Virus record (IMG/VR): IMGVR_UViG_3300021387_003972 | Reading direction: 5' to 3' (one strand) | Source: an uncultured virus (IMG/VR IMGVR_UViG_3300021387_003972) | Lineage: Duplodnaviria > Heunggongvirae > Uroviricota > Caudoviricetes | Length of the DNA stretch: 20,650 nucleotides | Shown: piece after piece, positions 5,001 through 20,650 of the stretch | Layout of the letters: each line of letters starts with the position of its first letter | How positions within the stretch are numbered: the first letter of the stretch is position 1 | Made by a program: the position numbers and the translations under genes | Notes under the pieces: model-generated | Databases searched by the model: none | The model's input: the letters and a program-made list of their open reading frames with translations, nothing else | What the model was told of the DNA's origin: nothing

Positions 5001-8000
5001 AATGGGAACATGTCCTCCGGACGAGAATCCAATTTGTTCAGAACTGTTCCAATATGCTCGGGGATTGCGTTTTCCGCCACGCCTTTCTTAACCCAAGAAT
5101 CCATGCAAAACGCGACAAACTGGCGCTCTAACACGGCTGATGCACGCAGGAAAATCTTCGGTGGTGTCACCTCCCCGGAGATCATATCCATTGGATCTGC
5201 ATAATAGTACAGATCATGAGGGCGTGCATTGGCCACAGCAAGTGTAAGGGCATTGCCGTCTTTTCTGCCAGCGCGTCCAGCTCTCTGAAGGAACTGGCTC
5301 TGTGCCGGTGGCATACTGCAGAGAATAACGGTTGAGAGATCGCCAATATCAATACCCATTTCCAGAGTAGGCGTACAGGAAAGGACATTCGGATCCCATA
5401 GGGCCTTAGACTCTTTTCCTCGTTTGAAATCGATCTCCAGTTGTTCACGGTCCGGGCGCTCCAAAAGTCCCGTGTGTTCACGGGCATTGATGCGCTCTAA
5501 GTCGCCTGAGCTATATAGCTTCCCATAGTATCCAAGGCTAGAAGCCGAAGCTTCACGGATATATCCTCCGCAGTTAGAACGCTGGCAAGGTGCATTCTGC
5601 CAGAATTCAAGATCTTCTGCAGAAACCGAGTAAACAGATCCGCAAGTATCACAGCGCATCTGCACTACATTCAAGGAAACATAAACCTTGTCTTTGTTCA
5701 GACCATATACCTTATATTGCGGAGCAGACGGAACTACGGAAACCACTCCGCATTTAACGGCTTCTTCAAGAATGAACTTACCGAGATAGGCAAAGTTAGT
5801 CTCCTCTACTAATACTGTCTTACAGCATTCCGCAATCCAGTCCGCGTATTTGTTTGAAAATGTAGTATCCACCTCAAAGGATTTTTTGCCTCCGCCTAGA
5901 TTCTCGACAATGAAACGAGGCGTATTGCGTCCAGACTGCCTACCGGGTAACCACCTGTTGCGGTCGTTTGAAAGCATATATCCGTGGAAATTGTTTGTCG
6001 TGTACTCATCAAAGACACTGTCTTCGAATGCGCCGTTCTGACGCATCAGATTCAGATAGCCGATAACCATGCGCTCATAGTCCGCTCTTGTCTCCGCAGA
6101 AAGCACCCCCAGTTCATTTACAGAACGTTCCTCAACTGCTTCTGCTATGGCACGAATATCCTCAGGGTCGAAGGACAAAACAGAGCACCCTGATTTTTCC
6201 AACGTTCTTCCGATCTTTCCGGTAAGACCATACTCCAGCATAATCTCATATTTCAGACGCTGCTCGATCTCATACATCAGAACCTTCGCCTGCTTGTCCT
6301 TGCCAAACTCACGCTTTTCAATCATGTCCTCATAGGCATGCTTCCAGGTTAAATTGGGTGCAATAAAGAAGCTGACAAACTCTTCATCCGTCATCCTCTC
6401 GTGCCAATATTTAATAAACCCATTCTGAAAATCAGCCAGGGACTTACCCGCACCAAACTCAATGCAATACTTCTGCATGGCAGTACGAAGTCCAAATCGC
6501 CAAGTTCTGGAATTAAAGAATCCTGCTCTGTGCGCAGCATCCTGTACGCTATCTGAGAATGCCAGCGTTTTCTTATCATCATTAAATTTAGAAGCAAACA
6601 TCTGAGAAATGCATGCACTAATCTCGGTTGCTCCACGAAGTCCCATCAAGGAAAGACCACGGCGGCTCCCACAACAAGGGCAAATATACTGTTTGTGCTC
6701 TTTTGTTCCTGAAGTACGGATCGGGCTGGGGATAAAGATATCGATCATTTCCGCGCCACAACTTGGACAACTGTCGCCGCCGCCTTCATAATTGATGTCT
6801 ACCTTGAGACAGTCGGGGCAGAGCTTTGCAGGGATCATACCTGCCATATGCTCTTCATGTCCCTTGGGGAACATCATCACGATCTTATCGTCTGCTTTGA
6901 AGTAGCGGTTATAAAATGCCTCCAAATTGTGCATTGTTGCATTCTGCCGCTCGTTCAATATAGAAACCCATCCGGTGATCCCGCAGTCACGGCAATTTAC
7001 CACAGGAAGGTATTCTTTTGCCTGCTGGGCATTCAGATCATGAGCGATTTCATATGTAACTTCCTCCGGATCAACTTTAGCAACAAGGCGGCGCAGCTCT
7101 CTCATCCAAAGCTGTACCTGTACAAACAGGAACGGCCTCAGTTTTCCCAAAACTCCTGTTCTTGCATGAGAAATCAGAGCAAACAGGGACTCGATTACCG
7201 TTTCCGCATCCGTGTATTCTTTCAGCTGCGGATAGTGAACCGAAAGTTCCTCTGCGATCTTGGTAATCTGGTAGTAGTTGCCACCTGTAAGATTGATAAC
7301 TGCCTGCATAAAGCTGTGGTGCATTAAAACATTTCCTAGAAACAGTCTTCCATCGTCAGACATAACGTCTTCAGAAAACTCCGGAAACCAGGCTTTCACT
7401 GCATAGCGCAAATATTCCGCAACATCATCCTCCCCCTCCAGCCGTCCAAGTTTCATTGCCTGCTCCGGAGAAGGCATATCAAAATGTGTGACATCAGCAT
7501 CTGAAAAGAACTCTGTCGCACTCAGCCGATCTTCTGTAATAACCGCATCACGCTCGAAGAACTCACCAAAGATCTCGGTTGCATACTCTATAATGCTGTT
7601 ATTGTTATCCTTCGATCCCATCGTTGCCGATGTGCCGATACAGCAAAGATAACCATCATAGATTCCGAGGCGGCGTTTTAAACGGCGAAGTAGACATGCA
7701 AGGTCCGTACCCTGCGCACCATCAAAAGTATGTAACTCATCGACTGCAATATATTTGAGCGTCTCCGTGCCATTATCCTGCCAGAGGATGGCATCTTTCG
7801 GACGAACTAGCAGATAGTCCAACATCTTATAGTTGGTCATCAGAATATCGGGTGGGTTGTTCAGCAGCGTCTCATGATCTGTAATGACACCATGTTCTGA
7901 CATCATTCGGGCCGGTGTTTCCTCCTGGCCGCCGACATACATACCTACACGCACGTTGCCGCGGAGTTCATTACTGCGATAAATCAGTTCTGCGATTCTC

Positions 8001-8422
8001 TTTGCTTGGTCAGATGCTAGAGCATTCATCGGATAGATAATCATCGCCTTGATGCCCCGTTCACCACGATGCTTATAGCAATACTCCAGAATCGGATACA
8101 GGAAGCATTCTGTCTTACCGGAACCTGTCCCTGTTGCAACCAAGGTTGAACGTCCATCGTCGCCAGTAAGCCGTTCAAAAGCTTTCTGCTGATGAACATA
8201 GGGGAGATACTCCGGATGTATGGATTCAAAACATGTGGGCATCTGCGGTGCTACACGGAAGGGAAGACGCACAGCAACATAGGGCTCATGGTAAACTGAG
8301 TCCTTCGTAGCAAGCAGCTTTTCCACGGAGCCTTTAAAAGGCTCATTGGTCATCGGGAAAGTGGTCTCAATATAATCCCCAATGCCTTTCTCCAATTGTT
8401 TTGCAAGTATGGATGGTAGCAT
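2084..8422 (-). CDS. Large YprA/Hrq1-like DEAD/DEAH SF2 helicase with DUF1998 Zn-binding domain and C-terminal restriction-endonuclease-like (Vsr/DUF559-like) region, 2112 aa
   Basis: PYVHQ Q-motif, TGTGSGKTE (I), YPMNALASDQ (Ia), TNYKMLD (Ib), VDELH (II), TSAT (III), LAFSDSVQDA (IV), TPTLEMGIDIG (V), QRAGRAGR (VI). Also LPNYAFP, YDSVPGGTGYL and CSC-x6-GCYHCL (DUF1998 type). Downstream: FDSELEQRF...KPDFVFWP...IAVFTDGFTYH...RVWSL. TAAGGAGG RBS 9 nt upstream. Confidence 0.93.
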   Translation of the reverse strand: MLPSILAKQLEKGIGDYIETTFPMTNEPFKGSVEKLLATKDSVYHEPYVAVRLPFRVAPQMPTCFESIHPEYLPYVHQQKAFERLTGDDGRSTLVATGTGSGKTECFLYPILEYCYKHRGERGIKAMIIYPMNALASDQAKRIAELIYRSNELRGNVRVGMYVGGQEETPARMMSEHGVITDHETLLNNPPDILMTNYKMLDYLLVRPKDAILWQDNGTETLKYIAVDELHTFDGAQGTDLACLLRRLKRRLGIYDGYLCCIGTSATMGSKDNNNSIIEYATEIFGEFFERDAVITEDRLSATEFFSDADVTHFDMPSPEQAMKLGRLEGEDDVAEYLRYAVKAWFPEFSEDVMSDDGRLFLGNVLMHHSFMQAVINLTGGNYYQITKIAEELSVHYPQLKEYTDAETVIESLFALISHARTGVLGKLRPFLFVQVQLWMRELRRLVAKVDPEEVTYEIAHDLNAQQAKEYLPVVNCRDCGITGWVSILNERQNATMHNLEAFYNRYFKADDKIVMMFPKGHEEHMAGMIPAKLCPDCLKVDINYEGGGDSCPSCGAEMIDIFIPSPIRTSGTKEHKQYICPCCGSRRGLSLMGLRGATEISACISQMFASKFNDDKKTLAFSDSVQDAAHRAGFFNSRTWRFGLRTAMQKYCIEFGAGKSLADFQNGFIKYWHERMTDEEFVSFFIAPNLTWKHAYEDMIEKREFGKDKQAKVLMYEIEQRLKYEIMLEYGLTGKIGRTLEKSGCSVLSFDPEDIRAIAEAVEERSVNELGVLSAETRADYERMVIGYLNLMRQNGAFEDSVFDEYTTNNFHGYMLSNDRNRWLPGRQSGRNTPRFIVENLGGGKKSFEVDTTFSNKYADWIAECCKTVLVEETNFAYLGKFILEEAVKCGVVSVVPSAPQYKVYGLNKDKVYVSLNVVQMRCDTCGSVYSVSAEDLEFWQNAPCQRSNCGGYIREASASSLGYYGKLYSSGDLERINAREHTGLLERPDREQLEIDFKRGKESKALWDPNVLSCTPTLEMGIDIGDLSTVILCSMPPAQSQFLQRAGRAGRKDGNALTLAVANARPHDLYYYADPMDMISGEVTPPKIFLRASAVLERQFVAFCMDSWVKKGVAENAIPEHIGTVLNKLDSRPEDMFPFNFLNYVQSTLSRQLNSFIQMFVGAWGTIEESSVIREELETFARGKGAENSPMHVKILDAFEDLKKQQEALRSSIDSLKEMIKELEAKPKDSSYDEEIKELKSEESALISVLQELGKKNIFNFLSDEGLLPNYAFPEAGIVLKAVLYRKEEESRTSAPARGTRKYEKMVYEYNRSASSAISEFAPNNSFYVDGRKLTIDQVDLTTAQAAKWRLCPSCSHAQIEEVGKHTAACPRCGSPEWADAGQVRNMLKVQMVYSNMDYTKSLINDESEDRTNIFYCKQLLVDVDEDADITSAYRMDNEDFPFGYEFVRKATLREINFGESDTVGEKMYVSGVEDVRKGFKICKYCGKIQPDRGKPNHSFACKTRKMTSLMQAEAYEECLFLYREFNTEILRLLVPATTMDASAVKMESFVAAFMLGMKEYFGNVDHLRATVSEVPVPDADYRKQYLVIYDSVPGGTGYLKQLMHEKNALIEIFEKALYKMENCSCKDDLEKDGCYHCLYAYRQSRQIGNISRSAAIRLLKSILSGKENVEKINKINDIPVNPLFDSELEQRFMEAVRTKVGAANVNDALRNGKHSYYIKLGDLAWEIEPQVLLDAEQGVKVKCKPDFVFWPVSAPDHLPIAVFTDGFTYHKDNVADDTLKREAIRRSGNFRVWSLSFKDVQNVFATQGDYATDTLEATKMPSGTRMYLSAVKKEQAEKLNPSKLSAFDQLIFYLENPDAERLFRIHAYAYGLSLLEPGLMKNNLAFTTWNETVEKVKDQTHYTETTYPFPGTAFGTWVPRQNNAHLAIYAGILPDQMKRGEQPAVCAVLKDEKDNRSDRYEHEWNGFFHFSNVMQFAKDYIAVSSSGLEQVTYLNLPAFAQAPVVSTDTASDEGWAAILELLFDNDAKAFAQAAQDEGIPAASEDNIGYEVEGSDGAIIATVEIAWPDLKIGFLTGEQLEDKERLEAEGWQIIDLLNLNDMKSAFGGDN
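2091..2098 (-). promoter_or_regulatory. Shine-Dalgarno site (GGAGGTGA) of the RelE-like/UvrD gene, inside the last codons of the YprA-like gene
   Basis: Minus strand reads TCGGAGGTGATAACTGATGGCA. Confidence 0.8.
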
Positions 8423-8455: not shown

Positions 8456-9577
8456 CTAAACAGAGTAGGCCGACTTATATTTCTTGAACACTGATGCCTT
8501 TATCAGAAATAAGTCCCCCTTACTCCTGGTCATCGCAACATACAACTTGTTAATTGTCGGCACCGGAATTTCCGCCAAAGAAAACTCATCCGTATCTAAC
8601 TTTTCGAATTTATCTGTCAGAATAACACAAGCAGCATCTACTGTATCACCTTTTGAATATGACCAGTTCATGGCCTCAAAAGAGTAGCTTGCAGCTTCGT
8701 TATATACAAGCTTTAAGACTTCCGGGTTTTGCAGAATAGACTCCACCTGAGCTTCTGCAATCCATTTCACTTTACCAGTATTGATCTCCTCAGATTCAAT
8801 ATTGATCCCAAGTTTTTCCTTCACAAAAGTGCAAATATTTTTTGAACACCTTCTGGATTTACTAAGTGTATCCTCATCGATGTCGAATTTTAACCTTTTC
8901 AGTTCATTTACGAAATCGGCATAACCTATATCTTTTTTCTTACATTTGAACGGCTTTCCGGAATTATTTATGGCTGACACAGAGTGCTGAAAGTAGTCTC
9001 CCACAAGAAGAACAGAATTCAGCATTTTGGAAAGCCCAATAATCAAGTCATAATCATGTTCTCTAAAATCCTGAAACTCATCTATAAAAATATGGTCATA
9101 GAATAGATTAAGCCTTTCAGCCGCTCGTTTAAGCAATGAGTCCTTACCCTTCTTGACGTACATAACAAGTTCCGAAATGGTTGCGCAATAATACTGACCG
9201 CCGGCTGTTATGTAGTGATCAAACTGATCCTTGCTCTTGTATTTCGGATTCGGAATGCTTCTAGTGCCTTTTTTTATAGTCTTTGACGGCGGATCAATCG
9301 TTGTTATTCCTTTACTCCGAAACTCATTCTGTCCAAAATATTCTGCTATCGTCGGCTCGTAAGGACAAACAAAATTCCGGTACACAAATGAGTCGAACGT
9401 CATGATACTCGTCAATTCTGGCACTTTGCCGCAAGCATCAACCAACTCATTCTTTATGTTATGAATATTCTCATGCGTATATGCCAATATAAGATTATGC
9501 TTCCGTGGATCTATAGTATGGCATATATGATAAGTTTTTCCTGCACCAGCAACGGCCAGTATTATTCGCTTATCCAT
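8456..9577 (-). CDS. gajB: Gabija GajB-like UvrD-family helicase/ATPase, short form, 373 aa
   Basis: ILAVAGAGKT (Walker A), LAYT, IFIDEFQDF (Walker B), LVGDYFQ, LSKSRRCS, SYSKGDT, KLYVAMTRSK (VI). Lies directly downstream of an OLD-family nuclease with a 16-nt overlap, which is the Gabija arrangement. Confidence 0.87.
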   Translation of the reverse strand: MDKRIILAVAGAGKTYHICHTIDPRKHNLILAYTHENIHNIKNELVDACGKVPELTSIMTFDSFVYRNFVCPYEPTIAEYFGQNEFRSKGITTIDPPSKTIKKGTRSIPNPKYKSKDQFDHYITAGGQYYCATISELVMYVKKGKDSLLKRAAERLNLFYDHIFIDEFQDFREHDYDLIIGLSKMLNSVLLVGDYFQHSVSAINNSGKPFKCKKKDIGYADFVNELKRLKFDIDEDTLSKSRRCSKNICTFVKEKLGINIESEEINTGKVKWIAEAQVESILQNPEVLKLVYNEAASYSFEAMNWSYSKGDTVDAACVILTDKFEKLDTDEFSLAEIPVPTINKLYVAMTRSKGDLFLIKASVFKKYKSAYSV

Positions 9578-11142
9578 GTAATTGCATCCTTCACATATTG
9601 AGGAGGTTCAAAGTCCTCACCACTCGTAAGCATTGAATATGCGACATCTACTTTGTTGTTCAACATCTTCCCGAGGACAGGGCAATATTCTTTTTCATGG
9701 AACAAATATTTTGCTCCAGGCTGTACATCGATAAGAGTATCGAGCTTCGCTTGATTCAACTCATAAATGCAGGCTTCCCAGGTCCATCCTTTCACCTCGC
9801 TTGCCATGAATATATGCTGTAAGCTATGCGCATTGTTGAAGGTTGAGGCATTGTCAATTCTATTCTGCTTCCCGTCATTATCAGTTATCACAGCAATTTT
9901 CTTATTCGTTGACTCAGCTATCGCTAAATACTTACTGTATGAAATTCCATTACACGAGATTACCGTAACTTCGTCATCCTCTATAGTTTTTCCCGTCATT
10001 TTTTCATAGAAATAGGGGATAAGCAAAAACTCTGTTGCGCCTTCCACTAAGATGGCTTTTTTGGCAAGAAGCAACTGCAAGAATGCATTATCATCAGCCT
10101 TTACAAAGAATTTTGCTACTTCTCTGTTTACGAAGCTCAGAGATTTTGCTCCCTCATCTGTAATCCACAGGACATTATTTAAATTCAATCTACTGGCAAT
10201 CATATTACTATGTGTTGCCACGATGATCTGTGATGTTTCCTGCTTCTCAGATATCTCCTGCAGCATTTTTCTCAACATAGAGAAACTCAAATGGTTTTCT
10301 GGTTCTTCTATTAGGATGACATCAAGACCGCTTTTCTTATCAAGAGCAATCTTGGTCTTAATGAGGCTTTCCATGCCGCTTCCACGGTTTTCCAAAGAAA
10401 TAGAATCTTCGTACACTGATAGAATTGCCTCTAATATCACTTTTTTACCATCGATACCAAACTTCCTTTTTTCATCAATCTCCGGCAAACCGATATTTTC
10501 AAAAGCATGATCCAACTGATCTCTAAAGGAATTCTTAGCCTTTGTGCGCATACCTTCATTGTATTTGCTGGCAAAAAGAGCCTTGTTATAATAATTGAAT
10601 GATGCAGCTGTACCATTATTTGTCGTATCGATGGATATAAAATTAACCGGCCTCTTCACCATCTGGTAAGGGCGATTCGCATATGTCATCCAGGTCAGAG
10701 CATAGTACTCGTACGGAATCTTCCCCTCTCGAATAGATTCGTCCAGCCCATCTCCGATTTCTTCGTCAAATCTGCATTCAAAGCGTATTCCATACTTTTC
10801 CGCCTGTCGCTTACGTCTCCCATAAACTTCGCCGTGGAAGTAATCTGCATTTCTCTGCTTTGGATCAAGCTCCAATTCAACTTCAATCACAATTCTTGGA
10901 AGTGTTTTGATACTTGGATTTGCTTGAAAAGCAGCAACCATATCAGCATTGAACAAGTCTCGAAGAACAGCTTTATCCGAAGTCCTATACTGTTGGTTCA
11001 AAACAGTTCTGAGGGCATCAAAAATCGTACTCTTTCCTGCCTCATTCTCTCCCACCAGGATATTCATGTGTTCATTGAAATCAACTTCAAGGAAAGAGAA
11101 TTTCTTAAAGCCTTCGATTGACAGTCTTTTAATGTAATTCAA
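9562..11142 (-). CDS. gajA: Gabija GajA-like OLD-family ATP-dependent nuclease (ABC ATPase + TOPRIM), 526 aa, TTG start
   Basis: IEGFKKF, GENEAGKST (Walker A), RGSGMES (ABC signature-like), ILIEEPENHL (Walker B/D-loop), VATHS (H-loop), TOPRIM ILVEGATE and ITDND. TTG start with GAGGAGGTG 5 nt upstream. Confidence 0.9.
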   Translation of the reverse strand: MNYIKRLSIEGFKKFSFLEVDFNEHMNILVGENEAGKSTIFDALRTVLNQQYRTSDKAVLRDLFNADMVAAFQANPSIKTLPRIVIEVELELDPKQRNADYFHGEVYGRRKRQAEKYGIRFECRFDEEIGDGLDESIREGKIPYEYYALTWMTYANRPYQMVKRPVNFISIDTTNNGTAASFNYYNKALFASKYNEGMRTKAKNSFRDQLDHAFENIGLPEIDEKRKFGIDGKKVILEAILSVYEDSISLENRGSGMESLIKTKIALDKKSGLDVILIEEPENHLSFSMLRKMLQEISEKQETSQIIVATHSNMIASRLNLNNVLWITDEGAKSLSFVNREVAKFFVKADDNAFLQLLLAKKAILVEGATEFLLIPYFYEKMTGKTIEDDEVTVISCNGISYSKYLAIAESTNKKIAVITDNDGKQNRIDNASTFNNAHSLQHIFMASEVKGWTWEACIYELNQAKLDTLIDVQPGAKYLFHEKEYCPVLGKMLNNKVDVAYSMLTSGEDFEPPQYVKDAITWISE

Positions 11143-11147
11143 GAAGG

Positions 11148-11156
11148 CACCTCCTC
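11148..11156 (-). promoter_or_regulatory. Shine-Dalgarno site (GAGGAGGTG) of gajA, overlapping the MTase stop codon
   Basis: Minus strand reads AAGTGAGGAGGTGCCTTCTTGAAT. Confidence 0.8.
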
Positions 11157-14100
11157 ACTTCTTCCCGTACTTTTCCTCAAAGAACTTCCATGCTGTCTCA
11201 TAGTCCTGCTCGCGGTTACAACGATCAAACGGCGCTACATATTCAATAGTGCGTTCCACCGAACCTCCTGGCATAGTATCGTCGGTGATAGTACGATAAT
11301 ATTTCTTACCAGCAGGTGCGCCTTTAACACTTTTTTCCCATTCTGACCGAGAAAAACCGACATTTGTCAAACTGCGATTGTTTGTAAAAACGATTCTTCC
11401 GTTTGCATCGTACCAAGTATCAGCCTCATAAGATTGTAAGACTGGGAATTGAATCCTATAAGCAGTTCTTAACTGATCCAGACTCATCCCCAATGCCATT
11501 GAGACCAAAACATCTAATTCCACAAGCGCTTCTCTTCTCTCAAAATCGCTTCTTAATGGAAACGAGGAATCCCATTTAATAGACAAATCTTTATACCGGC
11601 GATCATTTAGTCTACTGTCTTGTTTTGCCCATCCGTCTTCGCAATACTTTTGATTAAAGGTGCTATTCCATAGAGCAGCATATTCTTCAGTAATGGCATT
11701 CAAAAGCAATGCCCTGACTTCTATTGAAGGCGCAAAGTTCGTCTCCTCAAAACAAGGAAATGCAGAAAAAACATTGTAGCATCCATTTGCCTTGCCTGTG
11801 ACTTTAATATAAAAATCATAAGGAATAGAGGCCATGCATCCAGCCATAGATACTAAACCTTTTTTGAATGTCATACTATAAATTCCGTCTATATGGCACA
11901 CTCCCGGAGGTATAATAGCTGCTACTAAAGTTCGCTCTCCGCTTAAATTAAGCATTTTACGCATGCCAATTCTATATGTCGAATGATACTTACCACCCCA
12001 TGGCAAATCTATTATGTGTTGTTCATATTCGATTTGATTACATGCCCTTCGATAATTACATCTCGCCATATAATCCTGTCTAATATTCATTAAATCGATA
12101 CTGTCATAATCACTATTAAGTCGGCAAATCGCCCTTGATGTTTTAAACCTAGGATTTGCAACCCCGATATGTGGTCCCGATATAATGGTATCACTTGCTT
12201 CATCAGGAAAATGGACATCCCTCTTTATGATTCCTGTCTTTGAGTCTGCAGCCTCAAAAAACATAACAGCATATGCTAGATCCCTTTCGGGAATAGACGC
12301 TATAGTATTTGACTGAATTGCAAAACGCTCTAAAGCATCTAAAAATACTTGTGTATGTAATGATGGAAGGCGAGCACTTTCCCAGTCATCACTATCATCA
12401 AATAGCTTTGCAAAAAGCGATAGCTCTCTTTTTCCAACCTGCACAATTCTTTTAGGGTGTCCCTGGGTATTCCAACGACCTAAATCATCCTTAATTCCGG
12501 GGACATTTCCTCTTACAGATTTATCATAACAATCCTCGATTGTTGATGGATCATATAAATTTGAAATTGAATCAAAACGAGTACTCGGGGAGTTACAATA
12601 AACGTTTAGGCTAAAGCCCATATGGTGATCGACTTCTGCAAACAGTTTAAGTTCATTTGTAAATTGAAAATGTTTCCTAAGTCTCGGATATAATACCTTG
12701 CGAAGTGCAGTTCCCTTGGGATCATCATAAACGCCATCAGGATGTACAAATGCACTTACTCCATTTTCGCGTGAGAAATCCCATGCCTGCGGCAGAAAGC
12801 ACTTAAATAGATTTGTTTTCATCCCAAGCAAACAATAATAGTTTTGTGCAGCACACATATAGCTCTGGCTACTTGCCATCTGCTCATATTCATTAAAATA
12901 AATGCTGTATGTTTCATTACTTTGTAATGCTTCCATCCGTTTCTGGGCCGTTTCTGCTGCCGACATACTTCTAATCGCAAATAACGGATTTGAATCAGCT
13001 AATACATCTTGTTCGTTCCAAAGCATTAATATCCATGGCGGATTTCCAATCACAAGATCGAAGCCGCCCTTATCGGCAAATAGATCTGCAAATTCCAATT
13101 CCCAATGCATAAATTTGTTCTGTTCCGCAATTCTATAAGCAAGGTCAAGTCTGGGGTTATTCTTCCTCAGCGCCGGGATATCTACGACACTTCTTTGGTA
13201 ATTCAGGCCATAGCTTGCAACGATATCAACAGCCATCTGCTCCATCTCTGTTGGAAACAACGACATTTGACCAGCCATCGTATATTTATCTACATTGATT
13301 GAAGCAATAGTCCCTTCTAGAATCAGAGACATGTCAAAGAAGAACTCACTGCGAGAAGGCAGCAAATCCGCTTTATCGATCGGCCAGAACCAAAGAGCGC
13401 ACCAATAATCCATCGCAAACTTCAGTCTTGCGTATGGACCAGCATTTCTCATATGTTCTGATTTATATAGCTCACTGAGGATCTTATCCTTCTGCCGGAT
13501 CGTTGTATGAGAGTCCTCTGCATCATCCTGATGTCCAAACACAGACAGATGATCCTGTGTCTTCTGTTCTACTTCTTTTCTCAGACTAACCTGGGCTTCC
13601 CACAGCTCATCAACAATGCTGGAAAGGCGAAGTAGTGTTCCCACATCATTTTGGTCATACGGCGCATTAAACTTCTTGTTCCAGGCTTTCATCGTCTTGA
13701 TGTTGTCCGGTTCAAGAGACTTTATCACCTTATCGGAATAGTTACACATTCCTGGATCACCAAGAAGAAAGTGGTAAATCTGCTTTCTGTGCATCTGATA
13801 GTTCTTGTCCGCGCGTGCAGTTCCAACAGGGATTCTTTCCGGCGCAAGCTCGAACCACCGCAGCCCTTTTGATGTGGTCGTAAGATTCTCCACTCGATAC
13901 ACCTGTCTCCGTGCTCCGATCAGCGAGTTGCCATTTACCAACTGCGTGCCAAACCACGGCACAAAACCGCCCTCGTGAATGGTGTTCAACCACAGGGAAA
14001 CCTCTGCGAGTTCCACAGCAACAGGGTTCAAATCAATACCATAAACGTTGCGATCTGCAATATACATTTTTACTTTCTGAATTTCTTTGAACCGATCTTC

Positions 14101-15930
14101 ATAACCTATAACCTCCCCAATCTCCTGTTCCTTGCGGGAGATATAAGCTTCCGCCAGCTGGTTGATGGCTTCGTTTAAGAAGGCTGCACTTCCCATAGCA
14201 GGCTCGCAGATTGTCAAATCTAGAATCTGGTCTGCTGTTTTCCCTTCTAATAATTCCTTCAGAGCGTATTTCACCAGACACTTTGTCAACACTTCCGGCG
14301 TATAGTAGGACGCGGATTTCTCACGTTCCCGCCCCGCCAGACGATAGATGAAAGTGCCTTTCTCATACATGCGGAGCTTACCTTTTTTCTCTCCGGATTC
14401 ATACCGGACTCGTTCGTCCTCGGTATACTGATCCAGCTCGCTTTCCGAGACAAAGTATCCGACATCCAGTTCGTTAAAACTGTCTCCTGCTCTCTTCACT
14501 TCATAGAGATCGTGTTCCGCAATAAACCCTCGATAGGAAAGTAGTGCTTCATAAACTGCACCCATCTGGTTGATTCCGAGATTTGCATAGGAAATACGCC
14601 CACGACGGCTGTTTTTTCTGCCAGTGGACTTTGTGAGACTCATCAACTCAATGATTCGCAGCATGCAACTGTTCCTAAGCTTGCTTGCCGTAATCATTTT
14701 GGTGTATTCTGGGTCGAAGATATGCGCTTTAAGTGGTGCGATCAGAAACATATCATGCAAGCTATCCGTCCCGGTCGCTTCCTTAAGTTCTTCTTCCGTC
14801 TTCGGATAGCCAGCGTAAATCAGATCATAAAGCTTTGCTAGTGTTTCATGGAGATAGTAACCGTCGCCGACTTCTGTTACCTCATCACGGATGTTATCCG
14901 CAATATCACGGAGGCTTTCCAGAGAGTATCCCGAATAATAGCTCTGTGCTTTGATCGGTGCATACCCCAGTTCCGGCCGAGACTCTATGAAGAGGACAAA
15001 GAGCATTCGGTACATATACCGCAAGCACTCCAGTGTCAGCTGACCAGCGTCAACAGGATCTGCTTCTAAATCTCTACCCAGTCGAGTCTTCATATCATAT
15101 AAAACTTCATTTCCAAGAAGTTCTATGCTTTCTCGCAGAGCATACTTAAGATCTTGCGAAACGCCAGAAGCGTTTCTCTGGCTCTGCTCATCCAGCTCAT
15201 CCAACAAGATTTTTCCGTCTTCCGGGCAAAGTGAATCCTTATGCAGAAGAACGGACATGGCTTGCAGCGTGGAATTCTCCAGACGAGAGAAAATTTCTTC
15301 CAGTTCAAACTGCAAATAGCGCTTTTCATTCCATTTGTTTCGGTCGATCAGAGCAATCTGATTCATCCCGATATACATCAAAAACCGCGGCGGTTCGTTT
15401 TGTCCAAACAGAATCTTGGTAGCAAGTGCCTCACCCGGCATTTCACCAAGAATGCCTTTATACACAGTGCCATATGCATCTTCCGTTACCTGAGCCGTAT
15501 CAAAGGTATAGCTCTCCATAATGCCGGCATCCGTCTCGGTAGACGCCATTAGTACAACCCACAGAAGTGGAGCACCGTTTGCTTTCTTCATCTCCAGATA
15601 GACAGGCACTTGCAAAGTATCATCTGTCTGCACCATCTGCGGAGCTGCTTCCGGATACCCCAACGATTTCAGATAGCTGTCCGCCAAATCGCGAATATTC
15701 TGCAGTGTCTGCATGTTAACGGAAGAACGTATAAAACGGTCATGTGCGGCGTAGAACTGCGCTGCATTACGACGCAGATTGCTCCAGGGTGTGCGAATCT
15801 CTTCGGATTCCCTTGCTGCTACGTTCCAAGCGGTAATGGTATCGCCAGCATTCTCCTCAAACACGGTTGCGAAGTAATGATTAGTATAGTATTCGTTTTT
15901 ATTGGTAATGCCTGTTAAATCCATACTCAT
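11155..15930 (-). CDS. Type IIG/Eco57I-like SAM-dependent N6-adenine DNA methyltransferase with fused target-recognition region (DISARM DrmMI-like), 1591 aa
   Basis: MGAVYEALL, REKSASYYTP (motif X), ICEPAMGSAAFL (motif I, about 14180-14210), YGIDLNPVAVELA (II/III), GNSLIG, GFDLVIGNPPW (motif IV, NPPW at 13044-13033). The start overlaps the SNF2 stop (ATGA). The start could be Met1 or Met3. Confidence 0.92.
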   Translation of the reverse strand: MSMDLTGITNKNEYYTNHYFATVFEENAGDTITAWNVAARESEEIRTPWSNLRRNAAQFYAAHDRFIRSSVNMQTLQNIRDLADSYLKSLGYPEAAPQMVQTDDTLQVPVYLEMKKANGAPLLWVVLMASTETDAGIMESYTFDTAQVTEDAYGTVYKGILGEMPGEALATKILFGQNEPPRFLMYIGMNQIALIDRNKWNEKRYLQFELEEIFSRLENSTLQAMSVLLHKDSLCPEDGKILLDELDEQSQRNASGVSQDLKYALRESIELLGNEVLYDMKTRLGRDLEADPVDAGQLTLECLRYMYRMLFVLFIESRPELGYAPIKAQSYYSGYSLESLRDIADNIRDEVTEVGDGYYLHETLAKLYDLIYAGYPKTEEELKEATGTDSLHDMFLIAPLKAHIFDPEYTKMITASKLRNSCMLRIIELMSLTKSTGRKNSRRGRISYANLGINQMGAVYEALLSYRGFIAEHDLYEVKRAGDSFNELDVGYFVSESELDQYTEDERVRYESGEKKGKLRMYEKGTFIYRLAGREREKSASYYTPEVLTKCLVKYALKELLEGKTADQILDLTICEPAMGSAAFLNEAINQLAEAYISRKEQEIGEVIGYEDRFKEIQKVKMYIADRNVYGIDLNPVAVELAEVSLWLNTIHEGGFVPWFGTQLVNGNSLIGARRQVYRVENLTTTSKGLRWFELAPERIPVGTARADKNYQMHRKQIYHFLLGDPGMCNYSDKVIKSLEPDNIKTMKAWNKKFNAPYDQNDVGTLLRLSSIVDELWEAQVSLRKEVEQKTQDHLSVFGHQDDAEDSHTTIRQKDKILSELYKSEHMRNAGPYARLKFAMDYWCALWFWPIDKADLLPSRSEFFFDMSLILEGTIASINVDKYTMAGQMSLFPTEMEQMAVDIVASYGLNYQRSVVDIPALRKNNPRLDLAYRIAEQNKFMHWELEFADLFADKGGFDLVIGNPPWILMLWNEQDVLADSNPLFAIRSMSAAETAQKRMEALQSNETYSIYFNEYEQMASSQSYMCAAQNYYCLLGMKTNLFKCFLPQAWDFSRENGVSAFVHPDGVYDDPKGTALRKVLYPRLRKHFQFTNELKLFAEVDHHMGFSLNVYCNSPSTRFDSISNLYDPSTIEDCYDKSVRGNVPGIKDDLGRWNTQGHPKRIVQVGKRELSLFAKLFDDSDDWESARLPSLHTQVFLDALERFAIQSNTIASIPERDLAYAVMFFEAADSKTGIIKRDVHFPDEASDTIISGPHIGVANPRFKTSRAICRLNSDYDSIDLMNIRQDYMARCNYRRACNQIEYEQHIIDLPWGGKYHSTYRIGMRKMLNLSGERTLVAAIIPPGVCHIDGIYSMTFKKGLVSMAGCMASIPYDFYIKVTGKANGCYNVFSAFPCFEETNFAPSIEVRALLLNAITEEYAALWNSTFNQKYCEDGWAKQDSRLNDRRYKDLSIKWDSSFPLRSDFERREALVELDVLVSMALGMSLDQLRTAYRIQFPVLQSYEADTWYDANGRIVFTNNRSLTNVGFSRSEWEKSVKGAPAGKKYYRTITDDTMPGGSVERTIEYVAPFDRCNREQDYETAWKFFEEKYGKK

Positions 15931-18767
15931 TTCAATACCCCCGAGAATACTGCCACAATCCTAATGTAAGGATTATCCTGTATGGTCAATGTCTCAGTAA
16001 CCCAGCTGATAAATTCATTGAACAGCTCATCAATGCTCCGCTCTTTTTCTTCCAACTTCCGTTCATGTTCGAACAAAGTCATCTGATAATACTCGTGGTG
16101 CCTGTTCTGGAGCTCGATCAATTTGTCCACTTCCTTGTCCAGAAGTGGATTCATCCGATTCTGATAGTCCCGGAACTTCTCTTTAAGGAAGTCCTTTGTA
16201 TGCTCCACCACATCTTCCAACAACGCCTCTGCAGAGCTTACTTCATCTTCTGTAATTGCGTCCGTGTTGGTCAGACTGGAAGAGCGAATACCGGTCTTTT
16301 GCAAAACTTCATTCATATCCAGAACCTTATCAAAGCTGCCGTTCTTATAGAGAAGTCCAAACCATTCATCCACCAACGGAGTGGATTTTAAGTTCGGAAT
16401 ACTGCCGGATACAACATAGATAATCTCATCAGACGCAAGCGCATTTGGAAGACCGACGATAGGCGCCTGGCCGCGTTCAAATAACAGACCAGCCTTATCA
16501 TTGATCCAGTTAAATACCGGATGCAACGCCCAAAGATACTGCGTTTTTGGCCATGCGGTCTCCGCCATGTTGTTTTGCATACTACGCCGCATCTCTTCCA
16601 TGCAGAATACCTTGTCATCAGAAAGGCGCAAAGTATCTCCCGCAGGAAGCGCTTCTTCCGGAACCAATGCCCGCAGCCTGCGCATCATGTCCGGTGTCAC
16701 CTTAATATCTAACCCGGAAACTGTCCCAAGCTTTTCTACTGGATGACTCTCCGATTGATTCAGGTATCCAAGTGCCTGCGATAAATATTCAATATCTGAA
16801 TAAAGCGTTTCATCATCAACCGTCCTGGAATCTGCAGCCTCTTTCTCTTCAGCTTCACCAGCTGCTTTCATTAACTCCTCGAAAGGATCAAACTCTTCTT
16901 CCCCGGAATCCAGCGTTGCTTCAAACGCCTGCTCATCAGAGCCATTTTCAATAGCATCGATCACAACCAGTTCTTCATCCTCGATTGTGAACTTGCCAAG
17001 AAGAAGAGACGGATCACCGATATTTTTCAGTGCCTGCTCTTCTTTTGTGATCAAGATCTCGATAATCCGCATATCACCCTTGATACGCTTATTATCACTC
17101 TCAATCATCATATATCGGATGTCCGGACGCTTCTGTTGTCCATATCTGTCGATACGTCCATTTCTCTGCTGGAAAACCATCAGCGACCAGGGGATATCGA
17201 AATGGATCAGTCTATGGCTGAGGTAATGAAGATTCAAGCCTTCCGAAGCAACATCGGACGCAACAAGTACTCGAATCCGCGATTCCGAACGTCCAAAGTC
17301 TTCAACAATTTTTTGCTGATCTGCATCACTCATGCCGCCAGAGATTTCTTGAATAGCATTAGCCGGCAGTCCAAGGTCATCCCGTAAATGCTCTGCCAAA
17401 TACTTCATCGTCTCGATACGTTCTGTAAAAATGACGATACGATCATCCGTTGCCTTTCGATCCCATCCATAGGCAGGATCATTCAACAACGCAAGAAGCT
17501 TCTGATAGCGAGAGAAATCCTGTGGCTTAATTCTCATAAGTGCATCACGAAGAGATTCCAGCTTTCCGATGTCCTTAATCTCTCCGAAGCCATATTTCTT
17601 GTTCAGTTTGGCAAGTCTTGCATCAATGCTTTTGATGCAAGCGGCGGGACTAGAGAATAAGGACTTTTCGAGACTTGTCTTAAACAAATGTCCGTTGCCG
17701 CGCTCACGGCCGACATCCATCTGCAGCTGCATATCAGAGAAGATTTCATAGGCGTACTCTTCTCTTGCTGATGCATGACAACGCTCCAAATGAACTTCTC
17801 TTTCAAGGAAAGCACCGCCTACTTGGTCCTTAACATCTTTCTTAAATCTGCGAATGCAAAGGCCTTTTATATCTTCCGGAGTGTAATCTTCCGGGTTTGC
17901 TATCGCAGTTGGATCAAGCATATTCATGAGTGATGCAAAGCTCTTTGCTCTGCCATCGTGCGGCGTCGCAGAAAGCATAATCATAGTATCTGATCTGTCC
18001 GCAAGTAGCTTTGCAAGTCTGGAACGCTGCGCCTGATGGTCTCCACGCTCTGCTACATTCTGCGCTTCATCGATAACGATGATATCCCAATAAGCATTCT
18101 CCAAATGTGTCCTATACTCGACATCCCGCTTTAGGGTATCGATAGAGACGATGGTCTTGTCATAGTAGAAAAACGGATTGTAATTCGACGGCAAACTTGC
18201 ACGTATTTTTTGAATTCTGGACGAATCCAGGCGAACAAGAGGAATCGTAAAACGATTCCACATTTCCTTCTGGAACTGAGTCATCATGCTCTTTACTGTG
18301 ACAACAAGAATTCTTCGCCCTTTACCTCTTGCAATCAGTTCAGACATAAGAATGCCCGCTTCCAATGTCTTGCCCAGGCCGACGGTATCTGCTATCAGAA
18401 TTCTCTGTCTCGGTTTCTGAAGAGCAAGCTTTGAAGGGTCAAGCTGGTAAGGCATCGGATCCATTGCCGCTTTGTAGCCAATATGAATATTCGTGTCTGT
18501 CGGAATTTGCTGCCTCCACTGGCTCTCCAGATAGAGAAGCGACCGCTTATAACGCGGCGAACGATCCGGAATGAGTTTGATTTCAGCCGGATTCACAATC
18601 TGTATTTCCTCAAGATCAGTCAGGAAAATAGCATCTTTATCTTTTACAAGTGGTGAGATGCCTACACAATAAAGAACTCTGTTTCCAAGACTATTTGTCC
18701 TTATTTTTTTTACCATCCATTCTTCATCTCGAATGATGGTCCGCATGCCAGGTGCATAATCAACCAT
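15927..18767 (-). CDS. SNF2/RapA-family helicase (DISARM DrmD-like), 946 aa
   Basis: PMPYQ, ILIADTVGLGKT (I), QFQKEM, IVIDEAQN (II), MLSATPHDG (III), RIVIFTE (IV), SDVASEGLNL (V), HFDIPWS...QRNGRIDRYGQ (VI). AGGGGT RBS-like sequence upstream. Confidence 0.93.
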   Translation of the reverse strand: MVDYAPGMRTIIRDEEWMVKKIRTNSLGNRVLYCVGISPLVKDKDAIFLTDLEEIQIVNPAEIKLIPDRSPRYKRSLLYLESQWRQQIPTDTNIHIGYKAAMDPMPYQLDPSKLALQKPRQRILIADTVGLGKTLEAGILMSELIARGKGRRILVVTVKSMMTQFQKEMWNRFTIPLVRLDSSRIQKIRASLPSNYNPFFYYDKTIVSIDTLKRDVEYRTHLENAYWDIIVIDEAQNVAERGDHQAQRSRLAKLLADRSDTMIMLSATPHDGRAKSFASLMNMLDPTAIANPEDYTPEDIKGLCIRRFKKDVKDQVGGAFLEREVHLERCHASAREEYAYEIFSDMQLQMDVGRERGNGHLFKTSLEKSLFSSPAACIKSIDARLAKLNKKYGFGEIKDIGKLESLRDALMRIKPQDFSRYQKLLALLNDPAYGWDRKATDDRIVIFTERIETMKYLAEHLRDDLGLPANAIQEISGGMSDADQQKIVEDFGRSESRIRVLVASDVASEGLNLHYLSHRLIHFDIPWSLMVFQQRNGRIDRYGQQKRPDIRYMMIESDNKRIKGDMRIIEILITKEEQALKNIGDPSLLLGKFTIEDEELVVIDAIENGSDEQAFEATLDSGEEEFDPFEELMKAAGEAEEKEAADSRTVDDETLYSDIEYLSQALGYLNQSESHPVEKLGTVSGLDIKVTPDMMRRLRALVPEEALPAGDTLRLSDDKVFCMEEMRRSMQNNMAETAWPKTQYLWALHPVFNWINDKAGLLFERGQAPIVGLPNALASDEIIYVVSGSIPNLKSTPLVDEWFGLLYKNGSFDKVLDMNEVLQKTGIRSSSLTNTDAITEDEVSSAEALLEDVVEHTKDFLKEKFRDYQNRMNPLLDKEVDKLIELQNRHHEYYQMTLFEHERKLEEKERSIDELFNEFISWVTETLTIQDNPYIRIVAVFSGVLK

Positions 18768-18783
18768 GTTTCCAACCCCTGCC

Positions 18784-19647
18784 TTATTGATTCCCTATTT
18801 CTTTAATTCTATCTATAGCGTCTATCTTTGCTTGTAATAGATAAGGTAATTTCTCTTCTTCACGTTTTACCCATGTATCTCTATCATCATAACGACTCTT
18901 TAAAGGTCTCTGTTTAACCTCCTCAATCTTATGTAAGTGACAATCAATTGCCTTTATTATCTCTTCTGGGGAATTCCGAAGTAATTCGTTTGCTTTTTGT
19001 TCATGTTCTCGACATTGGTCTTTGTATCGTTCTATATCATCTTGATAAAAAGCAATTCTGTGCTCATATTTTTTTGGAATGTCCTTAATATGTTCTTGAC
19101 ACCTGTCGATCACAAATTGTGAAGCACTTTTTTTTTCATCTAATTCTTTTTGCCTACTTAATGATTTTGTTTTCTCTTTAAGTTCTTCCAATCTTTTAAT
19201 ATAATCATTATGAATTTGAATTTCTCTTTCTTCATATTCAATATCAGCCTTTATTTGTCTTTTTATATCATTTATATGGTATCTTGCATCTCTTGGATAT
19301 AAATCTTGTTCCCAGTCTCTATTATATTTATCCATTATATAACTTATTATCTTTGGGCACTCTATGAGCTCATAGAACTCTTTGTCTCTCTCTTCCTTTT
19401 TTTCTTTCTCTTTTTCTTTTTTTGCAAGTTCTAATTCAACACGTTTTTGGTGTTCTTCTTTCTCTCGTCTCTCTTGCTCTTCAACCTCTTGATTATTACG
19501 TACAAAGCAAAACAGGTATAATGCCCAGCAAAAAAAGAGGCCAATAAGATTCTTATAATGGCTCGCTTGATTGCCTGGAAACATAAGGCCGAAGGCTGTT
19601 GCTAAAAGAATCCAATATGTATTTCTTCTGTTTTTCCAGCTTTTCAT
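18784..19647 (-). CDS. Hypothetical membrane-anchored coiled-coil protein, 287 aa
   Basis: Long ORF in very AT-rich DNA (hand-counted 60-mers at 19141 and 19261: 23% and 30% GC). Two N-terminal hydrophobic segments (YWILLATAFGLMF; LIGLFFCWALYLFCFV) followed by an E/K/R/Q-rich helical body. Stop is 16 nt before the SNF2 start. No family recognised. Confidence 0.78.
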   Translation of the reverse strand: MKSWKNRRNTYWILLATAFGLMFPGNQASHYKNLIGLFFCWALYLFCFVRNNQEVEEQERREKEEHQKRVELELAKKEKEKEKKEERDKEFYELIECPKIISYIMDKYNRDWEQDLYPRDARYHINDIKRQIKADIEYEEREIQIHNDYIKRLEELKEKTKSLSRQKELDEKKSASQFVIDRCQEHIKDIPKKYEHRIAFYQDDIERYKDQCREHEQKANELLRNSPEEIIKAIDCHLHKIEEVKQRPLKSRYDDRDTWVKREEEKLPYLLQAKIDAIDRIKEIGNQ

Positions 19648-19721
19648 AATCCGCTTCGCACCTTAAACATACTTTCAAATAATATCCATCTGTTCTTATA
19701 TTAAAGAGATCCGGATTGTGT

Positions 19722-20414
19722 TCATATAAACTCAATAAGGCCCTTATCTATACACAGCTGATAGTTGAGCTGCTTCCGGCCCACTTTTTCAAAATTCACA
19801 ATGATGAAGCCTTCTTTAATATCGATCACTGTACCTTCGCCAAAAGCCTTATGCCTGACTCTCCTGGCGCCTACCTTGCTCGCGCTTCTTTTGCTCTTTT
19901 TTACGCGAGTCTTATTATACTCAGCATCGGCGTTTTTCCCTCTGGCGCGATAATCGTCCATATCCTTAAATACAAAGATCGCCGGCTTCTTCACATCGTT
20001 CTCTGGTACTGGTCTGATCGGGAACATCCACACAAGGCGATCCTTGCCGTCTTCACCCGGCTGCGTCTCGGTATATGGTTTACCGACCATCTCAATTCTG
20101 CCGCAGTAGGTGTAACGCCCCTCATCCATAACCTCAAACAGATGAACGTCGACGTCGCTGCGCATACAATTCGCCAGTGTCTCATTCTGAGCCCAGTGAA
20201 TGTCCTGATCTCCGTTTTTCCCCATTCCGGTGTAATGGAGCACACCACCAATCCACTTATCATGGTACAGCCCCTTCGTGTAATCTGAGACAATGACGAG
20301 CGTGTTCGTCGTATGCGATCTGCGCATTCCACCCATGTTGCCGCACTTAAAAATGCTGACGAGCTCAGCATTACTTATTTCTTGGCCAATCTTCAAGCCT
20401 GGATTGAATGCCAT
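19722..20414 (-). CDS. SRA-like (modified-cytosine reader) domain fused to a C-terminal UvrD/PcrA-CTD-like Tudor domain, about 230 aa, no HNH domain
   Basis: FKCGNMGGMRRS...TLVIVSD...YHDKW...LHYTGMGKNGDQ...QNETL...VHLFEV...YTYCG resembles the SRA region of SRA-HNH type IV restriction enzymes. The C-terminus RVRHKAFGEGTVI...VNFEKVGRKQL resembles the UvrD/PcrA C-terminal domain. Start moved to the ATG at 20414 (MAFNPG) because AAGGGAG lies 10 nt upstream; the ORF track starts at 20465. Confidence 0.82.
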   Translation of the reverse strand: MAFNPGLKIGQEISNAELVSIFKCGNMGGMRRSHTTNTLVIVSDYTKGLYHDKWIGGVLHYTGMGKNGDQDIHWAQNETLANCMRSDVDVHLFEVMDEGRYTYCGRIEMVGKPYTETQPGEDGKDRLVWMFPIRPVPENDVKKPAIFVFKDMDDYRARGKNADAEYNKTRVKKSKRSASKVGARRVRHKAFGEGTVIDIKEGFIIVNFEKVGRKQLNYQLCIDKGLIEFI

Positions 20415-20424
20415 AACTGTGGTT

Positions 20425-20431
20425 CTCCCTT
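20425..20431 (-). promoter_or_regulatory. Shine-Dalgarno-like site (AAGGGAG) of the SRA-Tudor gene
   Basis: Minus strand reads CAAAAGGGAGAACCACAGTTATGGCA. Confidence 0.65.
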
Positions 20432-20468
20432 TTGTTTTATAATAAGCTTTCTGCCTGTCCTTCATTCA

Positions 20469-20650
20469 TTATGATATGGATTTTTCAATAGCCTCCACCA
20501 CTTTCACATCCGCCGGCAGCCAGTTCACCTGCCGTAGATCATTAAGCGGAAGCCATCTCGCCGCCTCGTGTTCAAGAAGTGTAAGCTTGCCGCTTTTCAC
20601 ACTGCACCAATAACAGGCCATGGAAAGATGAAATTCCGGATAATCATGCT
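20469..20650 (-). CDS. MutT/NUDIX-family (d)NTP pyrophosphohydrolase, C-terminal part only (5' end outside the window)
   Basis: Hand translation of 20648-20469: HDYPEFHLSMACYWCSVKSGKLTLLEHEAARWLPLNDLRQVNWLPADVKVVEAIEKSIS*. The Y-P-x-F-H-L, L-x-E-H-x-x-x-x-W and W-L-P-A-D pattern is typical of the C-terminal half of MutT/NudG-like proteins. The NUDIX box itself is outside the window. Confidence 0.82.
   Translation of the reverse strand, partial: HDYPEFHLSMACYWCSVKSGKLTLLEHEAARWLPLNDLRQVNWLPADVKVVEAIEKSIS

Follow-up and report, generated by a model that had tools for sequence, protein, structure and literature searches.

Bacterial SRA domains flip out 5-methylcytosine (5mC) or 5-hydroxymethylcytosine (5hmC) and are usually fused to HNH or other nucleases in type IV restriction enzymes. 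Type IV restriction is understood as the pairing of a reader with a nuclease. Here, we describe a mobile protein family of Bacillota that appears to keep the reader and to have swapped the nuclease for the module by which the helicases PcrA and UvrD hold RNA polymerase or UvrB. The analysis started from a gene at 19722..20414 on the minus strand of a 20,650-nucleotide (nt) stretch of DNA from an uncultured virus of the Caudoviricetes (IMG/VR record IMGVR_UViG_3300021387_003972); this whole stretch is called the window below, and all its features described here lie on the minus strand. The gene encodes 230 residues followed by a TGA stop, and its product, with an N-terminal SRA domain, a basic linker, and a C-terminal Tudor domain, is referred to as the SRA–Tudor protein. 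It seems to be a new combination of a known SRA reader with a tail that, judged by fold and key residues, is a member of the PcrA/UvrD Tudor family. The reading that we prefer, tentatively and at slightly less than even chances, is that of a nuclease-free descendant of SRA–HNH type IV readers that tethers DNA containing modified cytosine to RNA polymerase or UvrB.

An SRA 5mC reader and Tudor-type modules are found together in UHRF1, whose Tudor domains read histone methyl-lysine and which also has PHD, UBL, and RING parts. The SRA domain of UHRF1 is among the computed fold matches given below; the protein as a whole is unrelated to the one described here, and the likeness is convergent. The closest described systems are the SRA–HNH type IV enzymes, such as TagI and ScoA3IV (Sco5333), together with the SRA domain of ScoMcrA. 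TagI is reported to dimerize through its HNH domain, and the residues of its base pocket include Asp58 and Tyr67 (PMC6212794). SauUSI, another modified-cytosine reader, is an ATP-dependent PLD nuclease–helicase with a DUF3427 reader. It is described as being encoded beside a small MutT-like NUDIX hydrolase, and at least 60 SauUSI-like genes are reported to adjoin a conserved MutT/NUDIX gene of unknown function (PMC3141236).

As for the Tudor part, the PcrA tail is reported to bind a TGE β-hairpin that both UvrB and RpoB possess, the latter within its SI1 insert (PMC8318588). Residues H681, W684, K712, and L714 of PcrA are each described as needed for RNA polymerase binding, and a K708A mutant of UvrD was used in the same work (PMC5397179). 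A DNA enzyme with a borrowed Tudor domain has been described in DinX, an actinobacterial Y-family polymerase that carries a PcrA/UvrD-like Tudor/DUF3553 tail and for which docking on RNA polymerase was proposed from sequence alone (PMC6511836). DinX has no base-reader domain; it is a precedent for the loan of the Tudor domain of PcrA/UvrD to another DNA enzyme.

Domain structure of the SRA–Tudor protein

An AlphaFold2 model of the whole protein, built on 35 sequences, has a mean predicted local distance difference test (pLDDT) score of 87.5. When the model was compared with the PDB using Foldseek, the best match was the SRA domain of ScoMcrA (5zmn_A; E = 1.1e-6, probability 1.0). There were 31 matches with E ≤ 0.001, and all those listed are SRA-type readers, further ones being SUVH5, KRYPTONITE, SUVH6, LpnPI, AspBHI, MspJI, UHRF1, SauUSI, and TagI. 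An earlier annotation of the window, made from its sequence without database searches (hereafter, the initial annotation), had proposed an SRA-like N-terminal domain and a fold search to check it, and the Foldseek result bears this proposal out. Based on the fold search and on conservation, the domain comprises residues 1–136 (20007..20414, minus strand) and is of the SRA_ScoMcrA type. The type is named after PF26348, which is called SRA_ScoMcrA in the Atlas and is precomputed for all 120 homologs listed, including one that is 91% identical; the assignment of the window protein is made through these homologs and through its nearest Atlas clusters, which are named by PF26348. The related family PF02182 gave no better than E = 6e-4 for an SRA–HNH relative. 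Over the SRA domain, SRA–HNH genes of Bacillota show 54–61% identity.

In the alignment of the family SRA domains, Asp52 never varies, and Tyr50 and Tyr61 are almost invariant. Asp52 and Tyr61 are 9 positions apart, as are Asp58 and Tyr67 in TagI, and, mapped by spacing alone, Tyr50, Asp52, and Tyr61 may correspond to the pocket that holds the flipped base in TagI and UHRF1.

According to the model and the alignment, the stretch 19866..20006 (minus strand) encodes a conserved segment that follows the SRA domain, a long helix (residues 152–178), and a basic linker (residues 172–183). The linker, which had been noticed in the initial annotation, is the sole disordered stretch of the model (pLDDT < 50). 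It leads into a Tudor domain of the UvrD/PcrA type (residues 184–230; 19725..19865, minus strand), which was delimited by profiles, fold search, and alignment and which includes a family-specific C-terminal helix and strand. PF21196 (PcrA_UvrD_tudor) scores 19.1 bits against the whole window protein and 22.7 bits against the tail alone, and it matches 37 of the 38 family tails at E ≤ 0.01. Two relatives, P0042 (25.6 bits) and P0072 (31.2 bits), exceed the cut-off of this family. The second Pfam match of the tail is DUF3553. A profile of the tails, searched against the sequences in the PDB, found C-terminal domains of UvrD (7egt_B with E = 9.1e-6, 6yi2_A, 4c2t_A, and 7egs_B), with E values up to 8e-5.

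When the tail was modeled by itself (pLDDT 83.6), Tudor domains of UvrD, PcrA, or UvrD1 took the first seven places among the fold matches, with template modeling (TM) scores of 0.58–0.76 and a best E value of 2.8e-3; the root mean square deviation of the best three is 0.7–1.4 Å. The matches include 7egs, in which the UvrD tail sits on a lobe of RNA polymerase, and 7egt, in which it sits on UvrB, and the TM scores for 5dma, 6yi2, 7egs, and 7egt lie between 0.63 and 0.76. The UvrD/PcrA-type Tudor tail proposed in the initial annotation is thus supported by both the profile search and the fold search that it had suggested, and the possibility it had raised that the tail is not Tudor- or SH3-like falls away. 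The tail differs from those of PcrA and UvrD in being attached to a base reader and not to a helicase; when it is aligned with most helicase tails, one of its loops is four residues shorter. The sole PADLOC match of the SRA–Tudor protein is a weak one (E = 1.4e-4), between its tail and positions 473–523, at the C terminus, of the DpdF model PDLC02870. A UvrD-like Tudor tail may therefore be present in some DpdF proteins, which belong to the 7-deazaguanine Dpd system.

Neither a CxxC motif nor an HNH motif is present in the SRA–Tudor protein, as the initial annotation had stated, and a Pfam scan with a threshold as loose as E ≤ 10 gave no match to HNH or to any other family of nucleases. A type IV restriction endonuclease would have a nuclease domain (HNH, PD-(D/E)XK, PLD, or GIY-YIG), and the protein has none of these; in its action it would resemble only the reader half of an SRA–HNH enzyme. 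Compared with the SRA–HNH enzymes, the Tudor domain stands in the place of HNH, and unlike SauUSI, the protein has neither motor nor nuclease. The TGA stop at 19724–19722 is as clean as first described, and, because the next gene is just 74 nt away, no nuclease remnant follows it. A truncated SRA–HNH pseudogene, which the initial annotation had named as a possible outcome, was ruled out, since the family is large and forms a separate clade of its own, the Tudor domain is conserved, and nothing of a nuclease remains past the stop.

The longest open reading frame (ORF) for the gene, 19722..20465 (minus strand), would encode 247 residues. Read from the sequence, the ATG at 20414 (Met18 of this frame) appears to be a better start than the in-frame ATG at 20465, because GGGAG lies 9 nt upstream of it and the closest homologs, of about 230 residues, begin at the matching Met. 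A start at 20465 would add 17 residues that are absent from the homologs. The GGGAG core (20429–20425) belongs to a Shine–Dalgarno-like sequence, AAGGGAGA, at 20424..20431 (minus strand). The start and coordinates given in the initial annotation agree with both this site and the starts of the homologs. A promoter and terminator scan of 18500–20650 left the minus strand empty and gave no excess over shuffled sequence.

A separate clade of nuclease-free SRA proteins

A search for homologs of near-full length gave at least 1534 protein clusters at E ≤ 0.001, and an exhaustive search gave 1082 representatives (50% identity) at the same threshold. Because the best homologs reach E = 4e-144, the SRA–Tudor build lies far beyond chance. 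The carriers are Bacillota of the gut and the rumen. All 120 homologs listed, which are 173–278 residues long, have PF26348, and 16 of them also have PF21196. The NCBI name of the listed homologs that have one is "HNH endonuclease" in six of six cases. Pfam scans of the relatives P0041 and P0079 found the Tudor domain and no HNH, so that this name is unsupported by the domains, a point of practical importance for annotation.

The same SRA domain occurs elsewhere, in longer proteins, fused to HNH, a McrB-type AAA domain, a KAP NTPase, or a Schlafen-type helicase, and these fusions mark it as a reader module that type IV systems use. Tandem SRA domains occur in P0144, and P0163 (370 residues) and P0222 (471 residues, with a Cys-rich C terminus) have further domains beyond the Tudor-like region.

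A maximum-likelihood tree was made of 64 SRA domains, from a set of loci in which L076 was passed over by the anchor pattern and fragments below 240 residues were left out. In this tree, one branch with support of 97/93 splits 47 Tudor forms from 17 HNH forms, and, with midpoint rooting, the Tudor clade is nested inside the diversity of the HNH forms. As far as the tree of these domains indicates, the SRA–Tudor proteins are a single clade beside the SRA–HNH enzymes. Identical SRA domains were found across bacterial families, namely in loci L040 and L041 (Anaerotignaceae and Lachnospiraceae) and in L003 and L022 (Lachnospiraceae and Oscillospiraceae). Such identity of proteins in different families indicates very recent horizontal transfer, to judge from the sequences. 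Full-text literature searches, whose coverage does not extend to subscription journals, found no paper on an SRA–Tudor fusion.

A NUDIX partner and a mobile setting

Gene neighborhoods were sampled at 79 loci from species-representative genomes, in one scan with a ceiling of 80 loci, out of 107 qualifying stretches, and the 762 neighboring ORFs, called by a simple longest-ORF rule, were clustered. The recurring partner of the SRA–Tudor family, frequent and optional, is a small MutT/NudG-like NUDIX gene. The window holds the 3′ end of such a gene (59 codons and a TAA stop; 20469..20650, minus strand), which reaches the window edge and ends 54 nt upstream of the SRA–Tudor start. A tblastn search with this gene end (20469–20648) found matches in 43 of the 79 loci. 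Full-length NUDIX relatives score 94–102 bits with a MutT model and 79–85 bits with a model of NudG-type pyrimidine (deoxy)nucleoside triphosphate diphosphatases. In the 44 SRA–Tudor loci that extend 500 bp or more to each side, the NUDIX gene lies at most 300 bp downstream in 19, often with overlapping stop and start, and within 6 kb in 21.

Complete SRA–HNH enzymes are encoded at 18 loci instead, and 13 of these enzymes adjoin a NUDIX gene, on either side. The order seen in the window, NUDIX and then SRA–Tudor, was otherwise found only among the SRA–HNH genes. The two groups of genes are also alike in having no adjacent methyltransferase gene, and the NUDIX neighbor is shared with SauUSI as well. 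If the Tudor tail does dock on RNA polymerase or UvrB, the long-noted and unexplained NUDIX partner of 5mC-dependent restriction enzymes would gain a second, simpler genetic setting in which it can be studied. With respect to the initial annotation, which had called for a survey of homolog neighborhoods, the outcome was divided: linkage to the defense genes of the window did not emerge, and a recurrent NUDIX partner that it had not mentioned was found.

The nearest relative of the window protein, at locus L053 (83% protein identity), has a neighborhood that differs from that of the window. At L053:2778–6838, a gene for a SauUSI-like PLD–helicase–DUF3427 protein (929 residues) lies between the SRA–Tudor and NUDIX genes. 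In DNA comparisons with the window, the NUDIX 3′ end is 94% identical and the SRA–Tudor genes are 76% identical, and nucleotide similarity is lost 12 nt beyond the stop codon of the NUDIX gene. At this locus, a single NUDIX gene is thus flanked by two modified-cytosine readers of different kinds. Near an SRA–HNH/NUDIX pair, L072:12563–15349 encodes a protein of 928 residues with a region like the C-terminal domain of the RNA polymerase α subunit and a sigma-70 region 4; a related protein of 828 residues is encoded beside the SRA–Tudor/NUDIX pair of L051.

Other recurrent neighbors in the 79 loci are genes for large serine recombinases (15 loci), rlmD (14), an HTH_17 protein (7), Schlafen-type helicases (6), and McrC (3). 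In IMG/VR, relatives are encoded on nine viral contigs, four of them at full length; all four full-length copies adjoin serine recombinases, and one of the four has a NUDIX gene. The SRA–Tudor gene is carried on mobile elements and islands. An anti-restriction factor of such elements, which would protect their own methylated cytosines against the type IV enzymes of the recipient or bring RNA polymerase to the modified DNA of the element, could be expected as cargo beside serine recombinases and on viral contigs. In the Atlas, the cluster closest to the window protein carries a label of 60% viral, its phylum being known for only five members. We consider such a role rather improbable. The relatives on viral contigs are few, the SRA–Tudor protein is the only SRA_ScoMcrA-type protein in each of five host genomes that were checked, stoichiometric shielding of a genome seems implausible, and the NUDIX partner held in common with nucleases points to the defense side.

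Docking surfaces and a proposed mechanism

Six residues of the tail, H14, G18, G20, F34, K40, and C47, are invariant across the 38 family tails. K40 aligns with the Lys of UvrD that occupies position 708 of the 720-position UvrD model. A His, an aromatic residue three positions on, a Lys, and a Leu or Met two positions past the Lys are common to the family tails and to the PcrA tails of the five host genomes; the comparison was made with these PcrA tails and the UvrD model. The tail columns that match the PcrA/UvrD residues required for RNA polymerase binding, and for UvrB binding, are conserved. These retained residues support the idea, already put forward in the initial annotation, that the tail could dock on RNA polymerase.

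The five genomes, all of which carry an SRA–Tudor gene, were also checked for possible docking sites. In each of them, PF21196 matches exactly two proteins, PcrA and the SRA–Tudor protein. A P-x-T-G-E hairpin is present at about residue 300 of RpoB in all five, and a TGE motif is present in UvrB in three. No second SRA_ScoMcrA-type gene is found in any of the five genomes, which rules out that the SRA–Tudor protein is an immunity factor for a co-resident SRA–HNH enzyme.

In the mechanism that we propose, this lineage would have exchanged its HNH nuclease, on a single occasion, for a copied C-terminal Tudor domain from PcrA or UvrD. The SRA domain would flip out and hold a modified cytosine, of the 5mC or 5hmC type, in incoming DNA, and the flexible basic linker would let the Tudor tail reach its dock. 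The tail would settle on RNA polymerase β or on UvrB, at the exposed TGE β-hairpin (the "helicase interaction motif") that is the usual seat of PcrA and UvrD, whereby the transcription or excision-repair machinery would be tied to the modified DNA. Most likely, the transcription of phage or plasmid DNA with modified bases would stall or be aborted, or PcrA would no longer resolve conflicts at such DNA, and the net effect would be a restriction-like exclusion by a protein that has no nuclease of its own. The NUDIX partner would probably hydrolyze modified deoxynucleoside triphosphates (dNTPs), barring them from incorporation into host DNA or from use by the phage. If the tail does dock, recognition of foreign or epigenetic base modification would be linked to transcription or excision repair instead of to cutting, which would be a new effector logic for defense and a bacterial counterpart to the eukaryotic methyl-readers.

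A bolder version of the tethering idea is possible, though we regard it as doubtful. It has two forms. In one, the protein would provide restriction-like, nuclease-free immunity by sitting on the seat of PcrA on RNA polymerase, the β SI1 hairpin, while its SRA domain scans the template; wherever modified cytosine abounds in the DNA, transcription would be stalled, terminated, or deprived of the control of R-loops and conflicts by PcrA. In the other, no earlier bacterial 5mC reader would have coupled DNA methylation directly to RNA polymerase or nucleotide excision repair as this one does. Together with the NUDIX hydrolase, it would then make up a module of two genes that keeps modified cytosine in check, in DNA as well as among the dNTPs.

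Several observations weigh against tethering. The tail of the window protein, at 22.7 bits, stays below the Pfam gathering cut-off of 23.9 for PF21196, and PADLOC has no model for the SRA–Tudor protein. The strict published docking pattern is matched by just one of the five host RpoB proteins and one of the five UvrB proteins. The NUDIX partner is optional, because a NUDIX gene is missing from the surrounding 6 kb in 23 of the 44 SRA–Tudor loci. At its C terminus, the tail is extended by a segment that holds an invariant Cys and is absent from PcrA, and because of this extension the docking partner of the tail may differ from that of PcrA. On the side of the reader, a sequence search of the PDB with the window protein (phmmer) and with two family profiles reached no solved SRA structure, a difference from the SRA–HNH enzymes and ScoMcrA; ligand specificity is for this reason unlikely to be transferable with confidence from the solved structures. 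Finally, because all five host genomes encode a member of the C5-cytosine methyltransferase family, a plain 5mC reader would also see host DNA.

The C-terminal extension also bears on a simpler role, which we think unlikely, in which a Tudor-like barrel replaces the dimerizing HNH domain or adds DNA contacts and the protein coats modified DNA as a plain roadblock, with no part for RNA polymerase or UvrB. Given that TagI dimerizes through HNH, a replacement domain may need to restore dimerization, and the dimerizing C-terminal domain of KorB is among the weaker fold matches of the tail (ranks 8–10, E = 0.13–0.15). The SRA domain of ScoA3IV is reported, as data not shown, to attenuate T4gt infection partly on its own (PMC6765204), which would suit a roadblock as well as tethering. 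Against this role, the seven best fold matches are all of the UvrD/PcrA type, and the residues that the tail has in common with PcrA and UvrD are precisely those that bind RNA polymerase.

The presence of host methyltransferases leads to a housekeeping alternative, which we likewise hold to be improbable. Here, the SRA domain would read host 5mC or deaminated or oxidized bases, the Tudor domain would recruit UvrB or RNA polymerase, so as to repair the DNA or to control transcription in a methylation-dependent way, and the MutT-like NUDIX hydrolase would be a companion in cleaning the genome. A nuclease-free reader would be harmless to methylated self DNA, so that meeting it would be tolerable, which leaves room for a housekeeping or epigenetic role. 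Among the models, those of MutT, an 8-oxo-dGTPase, give the NUDIX partner its highest scores, some single copies of the gene lie between housekeeping genes (in L001 and L007, between aroA and aroC; in 14 loci, after rlmD), and the docking motif in the UvrB of three of the five hosts would suit a repair function. However, a C5-methyltransferase is already present in 9 of 14 control genomes, and a crude motif test found no C5-methyltransferase motif among the 762 neighboring ORFs. The gene also moves horizontally and adjoins recombinases and type IV genes, and its NUDIX partner is common to the SRA–HNH and SauUSI nucleases.

The defense island of the window

The window contains eight genes on one strand (minus), separated by short gaps. 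Based on Pfam and PADLOC, they include genes for a DrmD-like SNF2 helicase (15927–18767), a type IIG/DrmMI-like N6-adenine methyltransferase of 1591 residues (11155–15930), a GajA–GajB pair nested in the island (8456–11142), and a DruE/DrmA-like helicase of 2112 residues with a MrfA Zn-binding (DUF1998-type) domain (2084–8422). A gene for a UvrD-like helicase (3–2084) has the part encoding its C terminus outside the window. Between the SRA–Tudor gene and the DrmD-like gene lies a gene for a protein of 287 residues (18784–19647).

The initial annotation had suggested that the SRA–Tudor protein may be an adaptor linking the detection of modified phage DNA to RNA polymerase or to the neighboring helicase-nucleases. 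In the second case, it would pass such DNA on to the adjacent DISARM-like, Gabija, and Druantia-like helicase-nucleases. The common strand and short gaps of the eight genes would be compatible with this, as would the finding that no terminator-like site occurs between the SRA–Tudor gene and the next gene. A few relatives adjoin other helicases, of the Schlafen type in L014 and L032 and SauUSI-like in L053. In a tblastn search of the 79 loci with seven proteins of the cluster, however, the 287-residue protein, the methyltransferase, GajA, GajB, and the DruE-like protein gave no match at any locus, DrmD gave one match, and UvrD gave two weak ones. The nearest relative, in L053, is differently placed, with nucleotide identity that breaks just past the NUDIX stop. 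The adaptor role is the least supported of the alternatives, and we consider it very improbable.

Neither co-occurrence nor a system-model match assigns the SRA–Tudor protein to DISARM, Gabija, or Druantia, and its proposed membership in, or service to, the neighboring helicase-nuclease cluster is not sustained by genes that fail to recur with it. The same holds for the suggestion that a methylation-based system thereby acts on modified phages, as the local methyltransferase is of the N6-adenine type and does not co-occur with the family in any of the 79 loci. As part of the tentatively preferred tethering reading, the SRA–Tudor protein would be independent of the downstream DISARM-like, Gabija, and Druantia-like genes and would share only the island with them. 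None of the eight proteins of the window contains the strict helicase-interaction pattern, and a relaxed pattern occurs once, in the DruE-like protein.

Residues 23–81 of the UvrD-like helicase gave a weak match to a ParE-like toxin domain, below the cut-off (E = 0.0049, 17.3 bits). The 287-residue protein was assigned to no Pfam, PADLOC, or NCBIfam family. It has an N-terminal hydrophobic segment followed by a long, Lys/Glu-rich, coiled-coil-like body, and most of its gene falls in the 1-kb bin 19001–20000, which has the lowest G+C content of the window (0.35).

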